Source: an uncultured Candidatus Saccharibacteria bacterium | GTDB taxonomy: Bacteria > Patescibacteriota > JABMPQ01 > JAQVVF01 | Direction of reading: 5' to 3' | Length of the DNA stretch: 64,000 bases | Assembly (NCBI GenBank): GCA_964574655.1 | Contig: CAZNOH010000001.1 | Span: 535,020 to 599,019, forward strand | In this document: positions 12,513 through 48,653 of the stretch, piece by piece | How the letters are laid out: every line of letters starts with the position of its first letter | How positions within the stretch are numbered: the stretch's first letter is position 1 | Notes under the pieces: model-generated | Seen by the model: the letters and a program-made list of their open reading frames with translations, nothing else | Database searches by the model: none | What the model was told of the DNA's origin: nothing | Made by a program: the position numbers and the translations under genes

Positions 12513-12550
12513 ATAACTTGAAGTTTGCACCTTAAAGAAGGAGGGACAGA

Positions 12551-13054
12551 ATGACATTAAAAGTCGGGCAAGCTGTTATAATTCGAATATTGGAAGAAGG
12601 TGTTTGTCAGCGCCTGCTTGATGCTTTTGTAGAACGACTTGAGCCACTGACGTTCAGAGTTGCAACTACAGGTAGCTATTGGCACAAAAAATTTCAATTA
12701 TCTCAATGCGAATTTATTGCTCTAGGCCGTATGGAACCGAAGATCTACTGGTTCTGCAGACATACTATTCCTGATCCTCAAGGATTAGGTCAAAAACTAG
12801 ATCTTCGTCTTGTTGCCATTTCAGCATTGTGCGAGGTAACTGCTTGGGAAATTCTTTTCAGATCCCAGGGTGCCAAAATCGGTGATGCTGACTGTGACTT
12901 GCCTACTTTTAAGCAACATTTTCATATTGAAGCTACGACCAGCAACATGGACACTGAAGGAGTGTTGATCATCCACGATTGCTCCTTAGTCGCACCTTTT
13001 TGGATTGCTGATTCTGAGCCTTGCTATACGATTGAGAATATGAAACTGCGTTGA
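12551..13054 (+). CDS. ORFan protein (167 aa) in an intermediate-GC, strong-RBS cassette
   Basis: AAGGAGGG 6 nt before the ATG; G+C and codon usage clearly richer than neighbours; no recognisable domain. Confidence 0.5.
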   Translation: MTLKVGQAVIIRILEEGVCQRLLDAFVERLEPLTFRVATTGSYWHKKFQLSQCEFIALGRMEPKIYWFCRHTIPDPQGLGQKLDLRLVAISALCEVTAWEILFRSQGAKIGDADCDLPTFKQHFHIEATTSNMDTEGVLIIHDCSLVAPFWIADSEPCYTIENMKLR

Positions 13055-16066: not shown

Positions 16067-16150
16067 TGGTGCCCGGAGCGGGATTCGAACCCGCATGTCT
16101 TGCGACGGAGGATTTTAAGTCCCCTGCGGCTACCTTTTCGCCATCCGGGC
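16067..16150 (-). tRNA. tRNA-Leu (anticodon TAA), long variable arm, CCA encoded
   Basis: Reverse complement folds as a cloverleaf: acceptor GCCCGGA/TCCGGGC, anticodon loop CTTAAAA, long variable arm, T-arm GGTTCGAATCC. Confidence 0.8.
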
Positions 16151-16554: not shown

Positions 16555-16691
16555 AAAAAGCATTGGAGTGAGCACAAAAAAAGAGCCCACTGAAAGTGAA
16601 CTCTTGAAGGAACGAACGCTGAAAGAACTGGAATTGTTGGAGAGAAGCCGCACCCGACGCACTTGCGTTTGTCGGATGGGAACTGAAGATT

Positions 16692-17276
16692 CTAGGGGAG
16701 CTTGAGGTAGTGGCCGCCGGAGGGATCCGACATGATCTTGAGACCATCGTAGACGTTGCATCCGACGACGGTCAGCCAGTCTTCGCCACTCCGAGGCCAC
16801 GCGGAATCGACACCAGCAGGAATCATCGCGCAAGCACCGTTGTTCGCCGTCTGCAGAGCGCAGACCGGCTCGACCCCAGGAGGCATGCACCCGAAGGTCC
16901 ACGCACCGAGGCCGACGATGTTGCCGCAGATCTGGCCGTTGTCGATCCACACCTCGCATATATCGGTGTCGGGCGGATTGTTGGGCACGCACTGGGTCTG
17001 GCCCGCCTGGCACTCGTTGCCACCTTCGCCTTCGCCCTCGCAGCCGCAGTCGCACCCCTCGCCCTCGCCTTCGCCACCGTCCACCACGCCACTGTCCGTC
17101 TCACCCTCGCCCTCGTTGCCCTCACCTTCTCCTTCTCCCTCACCTTCACCCTCGCCCTCGACGCCCTCACCCTCGCCCTCGTTGCCGTTGTCCTCCATGT
17201 CCTTCTCGCGCAGGGCGCAGTTCGTGTTGATGATCGTCAGGCCGAACAGGATCCACATCGTCGCGCGCTTCATCAC
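16692..17276 (-). CDS. secreted protein with (EG)n repeat and Cys-rich C-terminal domain, in the high-GC island
   Basis: GGAGGAGG RBS; N-terminal signal peptide; GEGEGEGEG tract; 14 cysteines; GC-rich codon usage unlike the host. Confidence 0.5.
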   Translation of the reverse strand: MMKRATMWILFGLTIINTNCALREKDMEDNGNEGEGEGVEGEGEGEGEGEGEGNEGEGETDSGVVDGGEGEGEGCDCGCEGEGEGGNECQAGQTQCVPNNPPDTDICEVWIDNGQICGNIVGLGAWTFGCMPPGVEPVCALQTANNGACAMIPAGVDSAWPRSGEDWLTVVGCNVYDGLKIMSDPSGGHYLKLP

Positions 17277-17351
17277 AGCACCTCCTCCTCTCTCGTTGAC
17301 TCACCCGAACCGGGCGCTCGACTCCTTGCGAAGCCGAGCGCCCGGACGACT

Positions 17352-18416
17352 CTAGAACCGCACGCCGAAGTTACCGGCGCCGGACTTGATCATCTGCCAC
17401 CCACGCCGGTCCTCCACGTCACCCTTGAGCTCGCCACGCATCTCGTAGATGAACGACCAGCCCTCGAGCTTCGCGAGTTCTCCGACGAATCCCACGCCAC
17501 CACCGACCTCACCGCGACCGAAGTACATGTGGGTGTCGAGGTCGAACGTCCTGCCGATCAGACAGAAGTGTGGCTTGATCCACTGCTTCCAGTCGTACTC
17601 GGCGTTCAGCTCGAACCCGGCAGCACCGACCTCGTTGGCCTTGCCGTACTGCGCGCCCACCCCGATGGTCCAGCTCTCGCTGACCGGGAAGTTGACACGG
17701 AGCATGGCTCCGACGAAGTTGTCGCGCTCGGGGCTCCAGAGGTACTGTCCGACCAGGTCGTAGGTGATGTTCACCTTGGCCTCGCCGTCGTCACCCCTGC
17801 AATCCATCACGTCGCACTTCGTGTCCTTGTTCACGTCCTCATCACCATCACACTTGTAGTTTTCATTGCTGTCCCAGCACTGGACCGACGGCTTGGGCAG
17901 GCAGTCTTCCACGAGCCGGATGATAGCACCGCGCTGCCCTTCCTGGGCTCGCGTGAACATCGTCCCCTCGCGGATTCTGTTGCCGTTGACACCGATCTCC
18001 ATCAGCTTGTTCATCATGTAGCTCGCCCGCGCCCGCGCCCGAACAGCCCTGAGCGGATCCTGACCCCCAGCAGCGCGCACCTCTGCGGTGCCGCCGAACG
18101 GGGTCACGTCCTCCACCCCGCTGACTTCCAGGCATCCGAACTGAGCGGTATCCAGAGTAGCCTTGGCGCCGTTGAGGGCGTCGGTCCACTCCGTCTTCCA
18201 GCTCACGTTCTGCCCGGTCAGGTCGGCGTTGAGGAACGTCCAGATCTTCTTCTGCGCGGTTGCCCGGTCTTCCTCGGCCACGGGGGCCTCGGGAGCCGGC
18301 TGCGCGTAGGCGATCTGTCCCTCCTCGTCGTCCATCCAGAAGTAGTTGTAGGGGTTGATGTTGAAGAAACCGCAGATGAAAACCACCACCATCAGCCAGT
18401 TGATCTTGCGCTTCAT
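17352..18416 (-). CDS. outer-membrane-protein-like protein (OmpA-like segment, Asp-rich Ca-binding-like motif, C-terminal Phe), in the high-GC island
   Basis: RBS GAGGAGG; signal peptide; segment RAVRARARASYMMNKLMEIGVNGNRIR resembles the OmpA C-terminal domain; CDGDEDVNKDTKCDVMDCRGDDGE; alternating beta-strand-like C-terminal half ending GVRF. Confidence 0.45.
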   Translation of the reverse strand: MKRKINWLMVVVFICGFFNINPYNYFWMDDEEGQIAYAQPAPEAPVAEEDRATAQKKIWTFLNADLTGQNVSWKTEWTDALNGAKATLDTAQFGCLEVSGVEDVTPFGGTAEVRAAGGQDPLRAVRARARASYMMNKLMEIGVNGNRIREGTMFTRAQEGQRGAIIRLVEDCLPKPSVQCWDSNENYKCDGDEDVNKDTKCDVMDCRGDDGEAKVNITYDLVGQYLWSPERDNFVGAMLRVNFPVSESWTIGVGAQYGKANEVGAAGFELNAEYDWKQWIKPHFCLIGRTFDLDTHMYFGRGEVGGGVGFVGELAKLEGWSFIYEMRGELKGDVEDRRGWQMIKSGAGNFGVRF

Positions 18417-18674
18417 CGTCTTGCCCTCCTCATCCTCGTTCTCTCGTGTTGTAGGGTCCTAACCCTGTTGTCGGAATCTGTAGAAAGTAACATTGAATAC
18501 TAGCACAATTGAAAAAATTTGTCAACAGGATTTGATGGTTTTACCTTATATAAGCCAAAATTTAACTCTAATTTGTTATAATTATGTTTATTTGGTAAAA
18601 TAGAAGCATTAAGTTATAAGCTATAAGCTATATTTTCTTATTGCTTACAGCTTTTAGCTATAGCTCAAAAAAAC

Positions 18675-24915: not shown

Positions 24916-25063
24916 AAATTTTATTTTTTATTTTTAAATATATAATACGAATGACGATACAAATAATGCGAATGTTACGAATTACGAATACGTCAAATAT
25001 TTTTTGTTTAGTTTAGTATAGCATAATTTTTTGTTTTTGGGCAAATAAAAAAGTGAGAGTAAC

Positions 25064-25423
25064 TCACTTAGGATGAACTTCAATGTCAAAATCTTTTTGA
25101 GACGCAGAGAGCTTGCTTTCGAGACGATGTACACAACTATCAAGAATCCTGTGAATCCAATCCTCATACTCTACTAAAAATAGGGGCGCTCTTTCAGAGA
25201 AGAAATTTGTTCTATCGAGATCGTGTACTACCTTTCTCGCATGTTCAGGCTTTAGCGATGCATTTTCCAACATAAAACAAATCCTACGGATGATCTCAAG
25301 GTACACTTCTCTTGCTTCATTAGGATAATCGTCATCTTCACTAAAGATTCCTTGTATGAGAATCAGATTTCGAAGCTCATCAATCAAAAGTTCGTGCAAC
25401 AATTTTTCTTTTGAATCTGCCAT
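25064..25423 (-). CDS. ORFan protein (119 aa from MADSKEK), second gene of a self-contained cassette
   Basis: GGAGGAAAAC RBS before ATGGCAGAT; intermediate G+C; a terminator hairpin AAGTGAG-agtaa-CTCACTT plus T-run overlaps the stop. Confidence 0.45.
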   Translation of the reverse strand: MADSKEKLLHELLIDELRNLILIQGIFSEDDDYPNEAREVYLEIIRRICFMLENASLKPEHARKVVHDLDRTNFFSERAPLFLVEYEDWIHRILDSCVHRLESKLSASQKDFDIEVHPK

Positions 25424-25458
25424 GTTTTCCTCCTGTCTCAAGGTACGGCCAACTCTTT

Positions 25459-25713
25459 TTAGAGTCGGCAGCTAGGACAAATTTTCATTGTAGCATCATT
25501 GACAGTTTTACCGGCTGGAATGTCATCTGAATGGCAGAGAGCAACATGACTGATTTTGCCTCTTTTCCCGCATTTATCACATTTTTCAATATATCTTTGC
25601 AAAATCATGTCCCAAAGTCCTATCAGAGGCACAAAAAGAATGAGAACGAGGAATATAAACAGCGTTGCTAATAACATACAAATTACTATTAAGAAGTCTT
25701 TTACTGTTTTCAT
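25459..25713 (-). CDS. small membrane-anchored zinc-ribbon protein (84 aa), first gene of the cassette
   Basis: GGGAGG RBS; N-terminal TM helix; C-terminal CDKCGK...C...CPSC. Confidence 0.5.
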   Translation of the reverse strand: MKTVKDFLIVICMLLATLFIFLVLILFVPLIGLWDMILQRYIEKCDKCGKRGKISHVALCHSDDIPAGKTVNDATMKICPSCRL

Positions 25714-25766
25714 TCTTTTTCCTCCCTTTGAGTTGGTTGGTTACTGAAAAGAGCTTAACTGGATTA

Positions 25767-25795
25767 AATATATTCTTTTTTGCCTTGAAAGTCAA
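25767..25795 (-). promoter_or_regulatory. near-consensus sigma70 promoter TTGACT-17-TATATT driving the 25713 to 25064 operon
   Basis: Read on the minus strand: ttgactttcaaggcaaaaaagaatatatt; the RBS and ATG lie about 50 nt downstream. Confidence 0.5.
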
Positions 25796-25826
25796 CAAAA
25801 AAACCGCGTAAGGCGGTTTTTATTTT
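25796..25826. terminator. bidirectional terminator AAACCGC-gtaag-GCGGTTT flanked by A and T runs
   Basis: Hairpin with an A-run on one side and a T-run on the other, between the kamA-like gene end and the cassette promoter. Confidence 0.5.
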
Positions 25827-25858: not shown

Positions 25859-26974
25859 TTAGTGTATAGTGTGTTTTTTCTTTTTGAAATCTATGAATGA
25901 ATCATAGTTTACTTTCCAAGCATTGCCTTCTGGAATTGGAATTTTGCCATAACCATGAGGAGTGTCAATTACGAATCTAGCTGTTGCAGCGATGCCTGAT
26001 AGTCTTGAACGAAGTTTTGACCAAATCGCGAGTGCTTTTTTAAATGGCACTGTAAAATGTTGAGCCCAATAGACTGGATCATTTTGATACATGTAGTAAG
26101 GTCTGATTCCTTCTTTGACCATTTTTATAAATAGTTGGTATAAAGTTTCAACATTATCATTTACGCCTTTTAACAATACTGTCTGACTGTAAATTGTTGC
26201 TAAGCTTTTTTTTCTAAAATTATATAAAACATCTGATGACTGTTCTGTAATCTCAGCAGGATTATTGATGTGTACCATTAAATTTAAGTTTCTGATTTTG
26301 GCTAACAATTCATAATGCCATTCTTGGATAGCCATTGGATTAACTATTGGCAATCTTGTACCTAATCTTACAACATCAATATAGCCTTGCTCTTGTAATT
26401 TTGCCAGGCTCGTAATTATTTTTATTAAATAATCTTTTGGAGCAATTAAAGGATCACCACCTGATAAAATAATTTCGTTGATTTCTTTGTGATCTTTGAT
26501 GAATTTAAAAACTTCATTAATTTGTTTGTCAGTCAAAAAAGCGTTGTTAGCAATTGTACCTTTTGTCTTGCCACAAGATCCAGCTGGAATACCGATTTCT
26601 CGGCCACGCGTACAAAAACGGCAATAAGTAGCGCAAAATCTAGTTACAGTCCACAAAACTCGGCCATAAGTTACAACTTTACCTTTTTTTAATTTACCTT
26701 CATATTTGTAAATTAAGCCAGGAGCAACTTCATGTTCATCTTCGGATAATGGATCAAGATTATTTGTCTTTGAAAATCTTTTTTCCTTTTCAGGCTGAGC
26801 AACAAATTGCTTGCCTAACGGTCCATCAATTCCGCCATTTTTGGAAATTAAATCAGCCATGTAAGGAGAGATGATTTCTGGCAAACCTCCATGTGGCAAC
26901 ATGACTTTCATTCCACGAGAAATAAGTTTTTGTTTTGGGAACAAAAACTTTTGTTCCCTACTATTTTTTTGCAT
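25859..26974 (-). CDS. KamA-family radical SAM aminomutase (lysine 2,3-aminomutase-like)
   Basis: CATYCRFCTR CxxxCxxC radical-SAM motif in the KamA context; length about 370 aa. Confidence 0.75.
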   Translation of the reverse strand: MQKNSREQKFLFPKQKLISRGMKVMLPHGGLPEIISPYMADLISKNGGIDGPLGKQFVAQPEKEKRFSKTNNLDPLSEDEHEVAPGLIYKYEGKLKKGKVVTYGRVLWTVTRFCATYCRFCTRGREIGIPAGSCGKTKGTIANNAFLTDKQINEVFKFIKDHKEINEIILSGGDPLIAPKDYLIKIITSLAKLQEQGYIDVVRLGTRLPIVNPMAIQEWHYELLAKIRNLNLMVHINNPAEITEQSSDVLYNFRKKSLATIYSQTVLLKGVNDNVETLYQLFIKMVKEGIRPYYMYQNDPVYWAQHFTVPFKKALAIWSKLRSRLSGIAATARFVIDTPHGYGKIPIPEGNAWKVNYDSFIDFKKKKHTIH

Positions 26975-27995
26975 ATCTTTGTAAGGATGTATTAATAATT
27001 TGTGTTAATAATTTTTCGTAATCGATTCCGGCTGTTCTTGCGGCTAATGAAAAATAGGATGTTGTTGATACTTCTGGCGGAATCATGCCGGCTGGAGAAT
27101 TAACTTCCAAAACATATGGATTATTTTTTGAATCACACCTGATATCAATTCGGCACCAATCTCTAAGGTTTAAGGCATTCCAGGTTTTTAGACAAAGTGA
27201 TTCAATTTTATTTTCAAATGATTTTGAAATTTTTGCTGGGCAAATTAAGTGTTCTGATGCGCCTTTTTGATCTTCTTGTTCTTCAAAAAACCATTTAACT
27301 TCTAATGAATCAATTGGCAAATAATTTTTTGGCAATTTGCTATGATCAGCTTCAATTATTGGTAAAATTCTTGGTGGATTGCCTAACAATGCAACTGAAA
27401 ATTCTCGGCCTGTCAAAAAAGGCTCAATGATTGCTTCTTGATGGTATGTTTTTACAACTTGGGTAATTTGTTTTTTAAGTTGTGTCTGATTAAAAACAAC
27501 ACTTTTGTTAGTGATTCCTCCAGACGAACCTTGTCCAATTGGTTTGACAATTAAAGGGAATTTTAAATTTTTATCTAATTTTTCTTTACCAGTTTTGAAT
27601 AACTGATGGATTGTTGTTGGTACTTTATTGGCGACTAAAATTTCTTTAGCCTTGGCTTTGTTCAAAGCTAATGCTTGAGTCAGAGGAGTTGAACCAGTGT
27701 ATGGAATTTGAAGCATCTCTAACATTGATGGCAAATGAGTTTCGCGATCATGGCCATTCTTTCCTTCAGAATAATTAAAAACTAAATCAATATTTTCTTT
27801 ATTTTTATATAATTTTAAATATGCTTTTTCATCAGCTTCTATTGGTAAAACTTCAAAACCAGCATTTTTAAAATGCTTAATCATTGTCTTGATAGTAATT
27901 GGGTCGTCAAAATCAATTTCAGCGTGAGTGCTCAAATCTTTTTGATCAAGATATTTGTGTCTTACGTTGTATAAAAACGCGATTCGTTTCTTCAT
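26961..27995 (-). CDS. ATP-grasp ligase, D-Ala-D-Ala ligase-like
   Basis: FNYSEGKNGHDRETHLPSMLEMLQIPYTGS resembles Ddl HGxxGEDG...GIPYVGS; ATP-grasp C-terminal half; overlaps the kamA-like start by 14 nt. Confidence 0.55.
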   Translation of the reverse strand: MKKRIAFLYNVRHKYLDQKDLSTHAEIDFDDPITIKTMIKHFKNAGFEVLPIEADEKAYLKLYKNKENIDLVFNYSEGKNGHDRETHLPSMLEMLQIPYTGSTPLTQALALNKAKAKEILVANKVPTTIHQLFKTGKEKLDKNLKFPLIVKPIGQGSSGGITNKSVVFNQTQLKKQITQVVKTYHQEAIIEPFLTGREFSVALLGNPPRILPIIEADHSKLPKNYLPIDSLEVKWFFEEQEDQKGASEHLICPAKISKSFENKIESLCLKTWNALNLRDWCRIDIRCDSKNNPYVLEVNSPAGMIPPEVSTTSYFSLAARTAGIDYEKLLTQIINTSLQRYAKK

Positions 27996-28507
27996 ATTTT
28001 CTTTGCTTACGAATATCTCGAATGGCTTAGGCCCTCGAATAAGACGAATAATTCTATTCGCGTAATTTGTGGCCGTAAGGCATTAGTGAGATTCGCAAGC
28101 ATTAAAAAAGAAGCCCAAAAACTAGTGACTTCTGTTAGTAGCTATTAAATTTGTTGAAACTCTGCTTACTTGATTAGCATCCTCGGGTAGAGGAACATCG
28201 TCGTTTTGCATCATTATTTTATTGGGACTGCTTTGTTAAAAATTAATTATTTTAGTATAGCAGTTACCTTGTTTTCTGTCAATAGATTATAATATTTTAC
28301 AAAAACTTGATTCGTAAAAAATTGATACATAGCTAAGTATAACAACATTTTTTCTAGTGTAAAGAAGATTTTATTGTGGATAAATAAAAAGACAAAATAA
28401 TATAAAGTTTCATGATTTTTTTCAACAATAAAACCGCCTTTTACAGCGGCTTTATTATCTTCAACCTTCGTTGAGACTTCGGTTGATAAAAAAGACTGAA
28501 GACTTAA

Positions 28508-48613: not shown

Positions 48614-48653
48614 TAAAAATTGAATTTGCACCTGAGAGAAGGAGGAGGAAAAG

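Follow-up and report, generated by a model that had tools for sequence, protein, structure and literature searches.

A probable recurring accessory gene unit of variable copy number in a Patescibacteria chromosome, with a lineage-specific insertion in its leader

Patescibacteria have tiny genomes, yet they carry many lineage-specific small genes of unknown role. Two described kinds of system offer points of comparison for one such locus. Phage morons, a term associated with Hendrix and colleagues, are reportedly autonomous promoter-ORF-terminator units (ORF, open reading frame) inserted between conserved genes. Class IIa bacteriocin immunity proteins such as PedB (PDB 2ip6) are all-helical bundles of ~90–120 amino acids (aa) that are accessory, fast-evolving and often present as extra 'orphan' copies. 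Here we describe a short gene unit in a 64 kb stretch (the window) of contig CAZNOH010000001.1 from an uncultured Candidatus Saccharibacteria bacterium. The unit encodes an 84 aa membrane protein candidate (ORF A) and, downstream of it, a 119 aa acidic protein (ORF B). On balance we favour the reading that this is a recurring accessory unit built around B, that its copy number varies among relatives, and that A is a lineage-specific insertion into its leader.

The unit resembles a moron in being a self-contained promoter-ORF-terminator block placed directly after the terminator of a resident gene, in being present or absent among syntenic relatives, and in its atypical codon usage. Unlike a moron, it resides in a Patescibacteria chromosome beside housekeeping-type neighbours with no phage genes nearby, and its relatives form tandem arrays of paralogues with a common shell. 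B units had no matches in viral contigs or phage records. What appears to be new is the small, uncharacterised protein family; the general kind of arrangement is known.

The stretch forms a single autonomous transcription unit, and units of this type recur in relatives. All of its features lie on the minus strand and are given in window numbering; they run from the terminator of a KamA-like gene through a promoter, a Shine-Dalgarno (SD) sequence, A, a hairpin, a second SD and B to a final terminator. The upstream edge is the hairpin (AAAAACCGCC-TTA-CGCGGTTTTT, 25799–25821; nine pairs, four of them G-C) in which the KamA-like radical-SAM gene (25859–26974) ends. In two related loci (L003 and L007) an equivalent hairpin stands behind the KamA-like gene, though its loop and stem bases differ. 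A sigma-70-like promoter (TTGACT-17-TATATT, 25795–25767) abuts the T-run of this terminator, scores 10/12, and is orthologous to the TTGACA-17-TATATT sequence ahead of the first B-family gene in L007. The same layout precedes the other B-family units, and promoter-like sites as a class were not enriched (11 found vs. 12.6 expected).

Downstream of the promoter, the SD of A (GGGAGG, 25726–25721) lies 7 nt ahead of the ATG of ORF A (25713–25459). A 9 bp leader hairpin typical of B-family units (GCCGACTCT-AAAA-AGAGTTGGC, 25469–25448) encloses the last codons of A and its TAA stop, and the 59 nt leader folds with a minimum free energy of -18.9 kcal/mol (z = -3.0). The motif TACCT-N6-AGGAGG (25445–25429) follows and includes the SD of B (AGGAGG, 25434–25429), 5 nt before its ATG. 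ORF B (25423–25064) encodes 119 aa from this ATG, the longest reading frame being 125 aa from a TTG, and its TGA stop is located within the stem of a family-specific terminator (AGTGAGTTACTCTCAC-TTTTTT, about 25069–25045). The stop of A is 35 nt ahead of the start of B with no terminator in between, and the two genes are presumably co-transcribed from the unit promoter. When the 928 bp of this gap were shuffled, two ORFs of at least 84 aa arose in 0.3% of cases and one of at least 119 aa in 0.75%. An SD core at positions -18 to -5 precedes only 1 of 41 long ORFs in the window, where leaders typically consist of A and T alone; A and B are among the roughly eight SD-led genes of the 64 kb.

The physical features listed in a first-pass annotation of this DNA are all borne out by these findings at the coordinates it gave, with one qualification. 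They include the promoter, the two ribosome-binding sites (GGGAGG for A, GGAGG for B), a terminator overlapping the stop of B, a first protein with a transmembrane helix and a CxxC...C...CxxC pattern, and an acidic helical second protein. The same annotation called the upstream terminator bidirectional. The hairpin exists, but it is symmetric in form only; it is the KamA-like gene's own terminator and no convergent gene uses it. The annotation also described an insulated two-gene cassette, which holds in that the unit has its own promoter and terminator and two SD-led ORFs, but fails in that the two genes are not a conserved pair.

B has a pI of 5.07, a charge of -9, two cysteines, no hydrophobic segment and four predicted helices. 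A phmmer search, exhaustive over 1.84 billion representatives, recovered four bacterial relatives (P0004, P0006, P0007 and P0008; 121–141 aa; E = 4e-10 to 1.4e-4) that have MKPEHIK and R-I-L-E-S-C-I-Y-R-L in common with B and that score E = 1e-36 or lower with a profile. A 2512 aa eukaryotic SEA/mucin-type repeat protein (P0005), matched through seven repeats, was discarded as spurious. Profile searching added nothing beyond the phmmer relatives, and a word-indexed search of 5.8 billion protein clusters with A and B returned only the proteins themselves. B of the window scores 4e-40 against the profile; because that profile contains B itself, the independent evidence for the family is the set of phmmer matches.

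An alignment of the phmmer relatives, two further paralogues and one fragment read from the loci yields the signature C49…(M/L)KPEH…R92-x3-S-C-x2-R-L, also written R-[IL]-x-[ED]-S-C-x-x-R-L, in proteins of 105–141 aa. R92, S96, C97, R100 and L101 are invariant (8/8 members), as is C49 (7/7), and E53, K58, P59, H61 and D88 are mostly kept. All members are acidic and have neither a signal peptide nor a transmembrane segment. The family comprises only about five clusters in a narrow Patescibacteria clade. No significant match to B was found in Pfam, NCBIfam, PADLOC, PHROGs or PDB, and a full-text literature search gave nothing relevant. DUF6331 was rejected as an assignment, since it matched two of eight members at E of about 0.03–0.05 and was inconsistent across the family. 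The family to which B belongs is new, tiny and restricted to one clade, and its members are accessory cytoplasmic proteins with a predicted four-helix fold.

Every B relative is located directly upstream of DUF308-TMEM175(-L,D-transpeptidase) genes. In the window, the gap between the KamA-like/ATP-grasp genes and the DUF308-TMEM175-L,D-transpeptidase genes contains one unit; within the narrow Patescibacteria clade it contains zero to three tandem units. Over 2.7 kb, two Logan assemblies (L001 and L002) show 100% identity to the window. L003, which is fully syntenic and has a KamA-like gene 88% identical to that of the window, lacks a unit and carries 87 bp where the window has 928 bp. L006 has at least two B copies ahead of DUF308. 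In L007 the end of the KamA-like gene is followed directly by a first B gene and then by the start of a second. L008, found in identical form in five samples (L008–L012), carries three tandem paralogues of 116, 105 and 134 aa after an 830 aa ATP-grasp gene. The contig of L005 is cut at the SD of its B gene, and L004 is more distant and has different downstream genes. A metagenome scan anchored on DUF308 yielded only another copy of the L008 type. The absence of a unit from L003 could represent loss there or gain elsewhere.

L008 also contains a second, divergent B-like unit (668–1110; 121 aa; E = 1e-3 to the B profile) that has its own promoter, hairpin, SD and terminator and is situated between zf_Tbcl_2 and ATP-grasp genes. 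The matching place in the window (about 28380–28440) has no such unit, which makes this a second presence/absence site. In addition, the ATP-grasp gene of the window (D-Ala-D-Ala-ligase-like, 344 aa) overlaps the KamA-like gene (371 aa) by 14 nt, an arrangement suggestive of a conserved operon of two genes upstream of the unit (25859–27995, minus strand). An 830 aa double ATP-grasp protein takes the place of this pair in L008.

All units are enclosed by the same shell, which consists of a promoter fused to the T-run of the previous terminator (TTGACW-17-TAnAnT), a leader hairpin, a strong SD and a terminator. The hairpin arms include GCCAACC/GGTTGGC, ACCAACTC/GAGTTGGT, TGGCTC/GAGCCA and others, and are followed by CAGGAGGA. 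Single-sequence folding gave z values of -1.7 to -4.2 for five of seven B-unit leaders; besides the leader in the window, five of six others examined formed a comparable hairpin. The terminator, AGTGAGnnAyyCTCAC followed by at least six T residues, follows each complete B gene at this site exactly once in all loci, and its 18 fixed positions are the same in every unit. It is found once in the 64 kb window (0.01 expected) and never in viral contigs. Changes in copy number probably arose by recombination between these repeated terminator-promoter shells.

Elements of the B leader recur elsewhere in the window. SD-led starts are found at 12551, 31132, 48654, 48496(-), 25713(-), 25423(-), 18416(-) and 17273(-); in this minority AGGAGG lies 4–10 nt before the ATG, and the products are mostly small proteins without a Pfam match, plus one SLOG-like protein. 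The motif YACCT-N6-AGGAGG occurs exactly at 25429–25445 (-), 12528–12544 (+) and 48629–48645 (+), ahead of B, orf167 and the SLOG-like orf176, respectively. With one mismatch allowed there are five sites, three of them exact, vs. 0.43 expected. CACCT resembles an anti-SD sequence, and the motif may form an SD-sequestering mini-hairpin. The leader of orf138 carries a hairpin (TGCCAC-AAAAA-GTGGCA) directly ahead of AGGAGG, as in B units.

ORF A falls outside the conserved unit. Window positions 26004–25759, a segment that runs from the end of the KamA-like gene through terminator and promoter into the first bases of the leader, align with positions 5–250 of L007 at 76% identity. Similarity to the leader of the first L007 unit ends at 25759 and, as read by eye, resumes at the hairpin at ~25469. 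Also by eye, the 47 nt from the last codons of A to the ATG of B (GCCGACTCTAAAAAGAGTTGGCCGTACCTTGAGACAGGAGGAAAAC) match the remainder of that leader (GCCAATCAAAAAAAGGTTGGCGTGTACTTTGACAGGAGGAAC), and blastn matched 25460–25378 to the leader of the second L007 unit. Because both the promoter and the leader that follows A match L007 unit leaders, A appears to occupy an insert within the leader of a B unit, between promoter and leader hairpin. This strain-specific insert of ~290 bp (25758–25470, boundaries approximate) contains the SD of A and nearly all of its ORF; the last Cys codon of A spans the junction, and the resident hairpin supplies the terminal R-L-stop.

Apart from L001 and L002, which belong to the same population as the window, no locus matches the insert DNA, and tblastn revealed no A-like ORF in the related loci (L003–L012) or elsewhere in the window. 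In all informative relatives (L006, L007 and L008–L012), B-family genes stand without an A-like gene. No convincing terminal direct or inverted repeats of the kind that bound transposons were found around the cassette or the A insert. Immediately ahead of the SD of A, the sequence GTAACCAACCAACTCAA resembles the 5′ arm of the hairpin of the first L008 unit, and the A region could for this reason instead be the remnant of a former unit. We infer from these comparisons that A is a recent add-on and not an obligate partner of B, and the A-B 'pair' looks to be an accident of one lineage.

The protein predicted from ORF A has a pI of 8.8, a strongly hydrophobic segment at residues ~7–34 (hydropathy peak of 3.3 over residues ~7–30) and cysteines at positions 12, 45, 48, 60, 79 and 82. 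Its CDKCG (45–49) and CPSC (79–82) motifs are spaced as the two knuckles of a zinc ribbon are (~10–40 residues apart), and C60 and H55/H61 are present in addition. Among random 84-mers of the same composition, 0.3% contain at least two CxxC motifs, and the Cys content of A is 7.1% vs. 0.8% in the genes of the window. By the positive-inside rule, A would be a single-pass membrane protein of N-out/C-in topology with a cytoplasmic four-Cys zinc ribbon. AlphaFold2 (AF2) run on A alone gave a confident N-terminal helix (block-mean predicted local distance difference test (pLDDT) 85–98 over residues 1–40) and a C-terminal half with pLDDT below 50.

Small, Cys-rich proteins with a zinc motif and one hydrophobic helix are also found among the ZAS (zf-HC2) and LITAF-like proteins, and A resembles them to this extent. 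However, a ZAS protein has an N-terminal HxxxCxxC followed by the transmembrane helix and lies beside a sigma factor gene, whereas in A the helix comes first and the zinc ribbon last, an order the first-pass annotation considered atypical. A has no zf-HC2 match and no adjacent extracytoplasmic function (ECF) sigma gene; the neighbours of the unit are KamA-like radical-SAM, ATP-grasp, DUF308 and TMEM175 genes. LITAF differs from A in that its knuckles are split around the hydrophobic segment. The best Pfam scores of A were far under the cut-off (Zn_ribbon_15, E = 0.054, 14.7 bits against a cut-off of 28.9; a zf-LITAF-like domain, E = 0.096), and A had no match in PDB sequences, NCBIfam or PHROGs and no homologue in viral contigs or, by tblastn, in phages and plasmids.

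These features must be weighed against the proposal that A is a chance or decaying ORF in a leader insertion and that B is the only functional product of the unit. The lack of any homologue in the databases searched is consistent with such an ORF, as is a codon score of -0.01 bits per codon, the best of six frames but near that of one reverse frame (-0.10) and far from the 0.39±0.12 of the window's long genes. An ORF of at least 84 aa also arose in 8% of the 928 bp shuffles, the start of A differs between the NCBI and Logan gene calls (72 aa vs. 84 aa), AT-rich DNA easily encodes hydrophobic stretches, and the predicted C-terminal half has low pLDDT. In contrast, GGGAGG is placed at an ideal distance from the start codon in a genome region where SD sequences are rare, the two knuckles would occur by chance with a probability of about 0.003 amid a high Cys content, and the flanking charges suit a cytoplasmic zinc domain. 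Furthermore, B is clearly a real gene and has an equally atypical codon score (0.03 bits per codon, again the best of six frames). We regard a non-functional A as fairly unlikely and conclude that A is probably a real gene, a strain-specific ORFan that rides on the unit's promoter.

A was also considered as a diverged or frameshifted paralogue of B. The B profile scored ~0 bits in all six frames of the A region, and a collinear, in-frame resemblance between the proteins (…VICMLL… / …MKICPSC-RL vs. …RILESCIYRL) is not significant, so this origin was rejected as unsupported. A 15 nt inverted repeat (25633–25647 and 25706–25720; 93% complementary, 58 nt apart) may pair the spacer, start codon and first codons of A (AAAAAGAAUGAAAAC) with a downstream segment of its coding region. 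Such pairing may occlude the start of A; the repeat is AU-rich and may be due to chance.

The combination of a membrane zinc-ribbon protein with a soluble partner had earlier prompted the suggestion of a sensor/anti-sigma-like or abortive-infection-like pair. In its general form, A and B would constitute a dedicated module in which a membrane zinc-ribbon protein, sensor- or toxin-like, binds or releases a soluble partner in the manner of anti-sigma, abortive-infection or toxin-antitoxin systems. The close spacing of the genes on one presumed transcript agrees with this proposal, as do the opposite charges of the products (pI 8.8 vs. 5.1) and the presence of SD sequences before both genes where such sites are rare. 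However, relatives of B stand alone or in tandem with each other and never beside an A-like gene, A is without a homologue, and no sigma factor gene or ZAS domain order accompanies it. The pairing that characterizes type II-like toxin-antitoxin genes is likewise missing: B is found without A in L006, L007, L008 and L012, and A is confined to one population. Pfam and NCBIfam lend the module no support, and PADLOC had no match for A or for B of the window at E values up to 1; one B relative (P0008) drew weak PADLOC matches to GajB (E = 8.5e-4, 16 bits), CasR and Csa3 that no other member shares. The first-pass annotation had also suggested a search for the pair in metagenomic CPR genomes and phages; related Patescibacteria gave B relatives without A, and phages gave no match to either gene. 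A dedicated A-B module is improbable in our estimation.

What B-family proteins do can be approached through their predicted structure. AF2, run on a five-sequence alignment, predicts that B forms helices at residues 2–26, 35–54, 59–78 and 84–113 (pLDDT 73.8, predicted TM-score (pTM) 0.57), and on this model the family members are predicted four-helix bundles. The invariant R92, S96 and R100 lie on one face of predicted helix 4; this stripe, together with K58/H61 and the two cysteines, would form a predicted binding site or metal/redox site. Foldseek searches of PDB and BFVD returned only generic helical bundles at E = 0.18 or worse, including syntaxin Habc, Dps, designed bundles, Avd, the S23-IVP family and PedB, and a profile search of PDB gave unrelated proteins at E = 0.03 or worse.

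B resembles the class IIa immunity proteins in the general properties outlined above, including the occurrence of extra copies. The match to 2ip6 is nevertheless poor (Foldseek E = 0.49, TM-score about 0.3, no sequence similarity), no bacteriocin, toxin or transporter gene is nearby, and we know of no bacteriocin immunity family with two invariant Cys residues and an R-x3-SC-x2-RL motif. HEPN-related bAvd proteins of diversity-generating retroelements and the S23 intervening-sequence proteins are similar to B in size and in their up-down four-helix fold. The corresponding Foldseek matches (4dwl, probability 0.82, TM-score 0.45–0.48; 2rld, probability 0.80), though among the better ones, have E values of 0.4 that are not significant, and Avd-like phage proteins also appeared among the matches. 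The HEPN Rx4-6H motif on helix 4 is not conserved in the B family, in that R92…H99 occurs in the window's B only and other members have Y or S at the last position. B is also acidic whereas Avd is basic, and no reverse transcriptase or template/variable repeats are found near B. Our tentative suggestion is that B-type proteins might be accessory cytoplasmic binding or neutralising proteins, immunity-like or anti-defence-like in role, a guess that derives from their fold class, dispensability, copy-number variation and fast evolution.

Syntenic copies of B share 30–38% aa identity between lineages, with nonsynonymous divergence (dN) of 0.6–0.8. The corresponding values are 84–92% and 0.04–0.09 for DUF308, and 67–90% and 0.15–0.23 for TMEM175, so that B changes ~10 times faster than its DUF308 neighbour at nonsynonymous sites. 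Synonymous divergence (dS) is at least 0.9, which is near saturation. These comparisons are between lineages and include no polymorphism, as L001 and L002 are identical to the window and L009–L012 are identical to L008. B is fast-evolving by these alignments; positive selection is not demonstrated.

A further proposal is that B units are mobile, moron- or cassette-like elements whose ORFs are exchanged between genomes, with the shells as recombination handles, to form a diversity hotspot for interactions with hosts or phages. The shells are conserved and the flanks 76–94% identical whereas the ORFs are only 30–38% identical, and presence or absence breaks cleanly at terminator T-runs both here and at the second L008 site. 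Codon usage is atypical, as is G+C content at third codon positions (0.33 for A and B vs. about 0.23–0.28 in four comparison genes). However, because dS between the genomes is about 0.9 or more, the divergence of B ORFs needs no exchange, and dN remains below dS. There are no integrase, attC-like or transposase signals and no terminal repeats, nothing similar was found in viral contigs, phages or plasmids, and the shells may be under purifying selection as regulatory signals. We consider exchange of this kind unlikely. A broader proposal is less likely still: B-family units would be a diversity hotspot in ultra-small episymbiotic bacteria, in which the shells serve to amplify, delete and swap fast-evolving four-helix 'immunity/anti-defence' ORFs and now and then take up a foreign mini-gene, of which the membrane zinc-ribbon ORF A would be an example. 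Such units would then resemble integron or moron arrays, as a simple and enzyme-free cassette system.

The constant position of B genes suggests yet another role, in which B proteins would be accessory factors that regulate the adjacent DUF308 (HdeD-like) and TMEM175-like membrane proteins or assist them like chaperones, as the genes lie immediately upstream and in the same orientation in all five lineages. In contrast, each unit ends in its own terminator, and DUF308 is served by a conserved promoter outside the unit (TTGCCC-18-TATACT with an extended -10 TG, 25044–25015, minus strand) that is kept after the last unit in L005, L006 and L008 and stands directly after the KamA terminator in L003. 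L003 retains DUF308-TMEM175 without a B gene, the divergent B-like unit of L008 is at a different site, and B is acidic and has no DNA-binding motif. We give this role little credence.

A recurring B unit of variable copy number with A inserted in its leader remains the account we favour, and several points weigh against it. The functional proposal for B is a guess, no Foldseek match being better than E = 0.18, and no toxin, secretion or phage genes are nearby. The codon score of A barely exceeds that of one reverse frame. Because dN is below dS in B and dS is saturated, the fast evolution of B need not be an arms race and could instead stem from relaxed constraint or from old paralogues having been differentially retained. 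RNAalifold gave no structure on a MAFFT alignment of the leaders because the hairpin arms were out of register there; covariation is accordingly not formally shown, and the leader hairpin rests on single-sequence folds. The sample comprises only four to five lineages, and the contig of L005 is cut at the SD of B, so an A-like gene could lie upstream of it.

The locus is a clean and tractable case: a family with few members, a conserved regulatory shell, zero to three copies among syntenic relatives, a fast-evolving coding sequence, and a strain-specific orphan captured within the leader of one unit. If the units act in host or phage interactions, they would offer reduced genomes a simple route for turning over accessory functions. 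Otherwise, the analysis still sets right a tempting 'sensor pair' annotation, and it establishes a new family of small proteins together with its diagnostic DNA motif.

Two observations concern other parts of the window. The leader of DUF308 (25000–24944, minus strand) contains TTCGTA/TTCGCA-type repeats between the promoter and the start codon, including a direct repeat of TACGAATKACGA 30 nt apart. L005, L006 and L008 have similar repeats in the corresponding position; such repeats also occur near other intergenic regions, and TATTCGYA is weakly enriched in the window (nine vs. four expected). Beside tRNA-Leu(taa) (16067–16150) lies a GC-rich island (16600–18450; 58–67% GC vs. about 31% for the genome) with long ORFs overlapping on both strands and no Pfam or Rfam matches. 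Its SD-led ORFs on the minus strand span 18416–17352 (354 aa, signal-like N terminus, ending in …GVRF) and 17273–16692 (193 aa, lipobox-like MKRATMWILFGLTIINTNC). The island is 77% conserved in L003 and is therefore not a misassembly.

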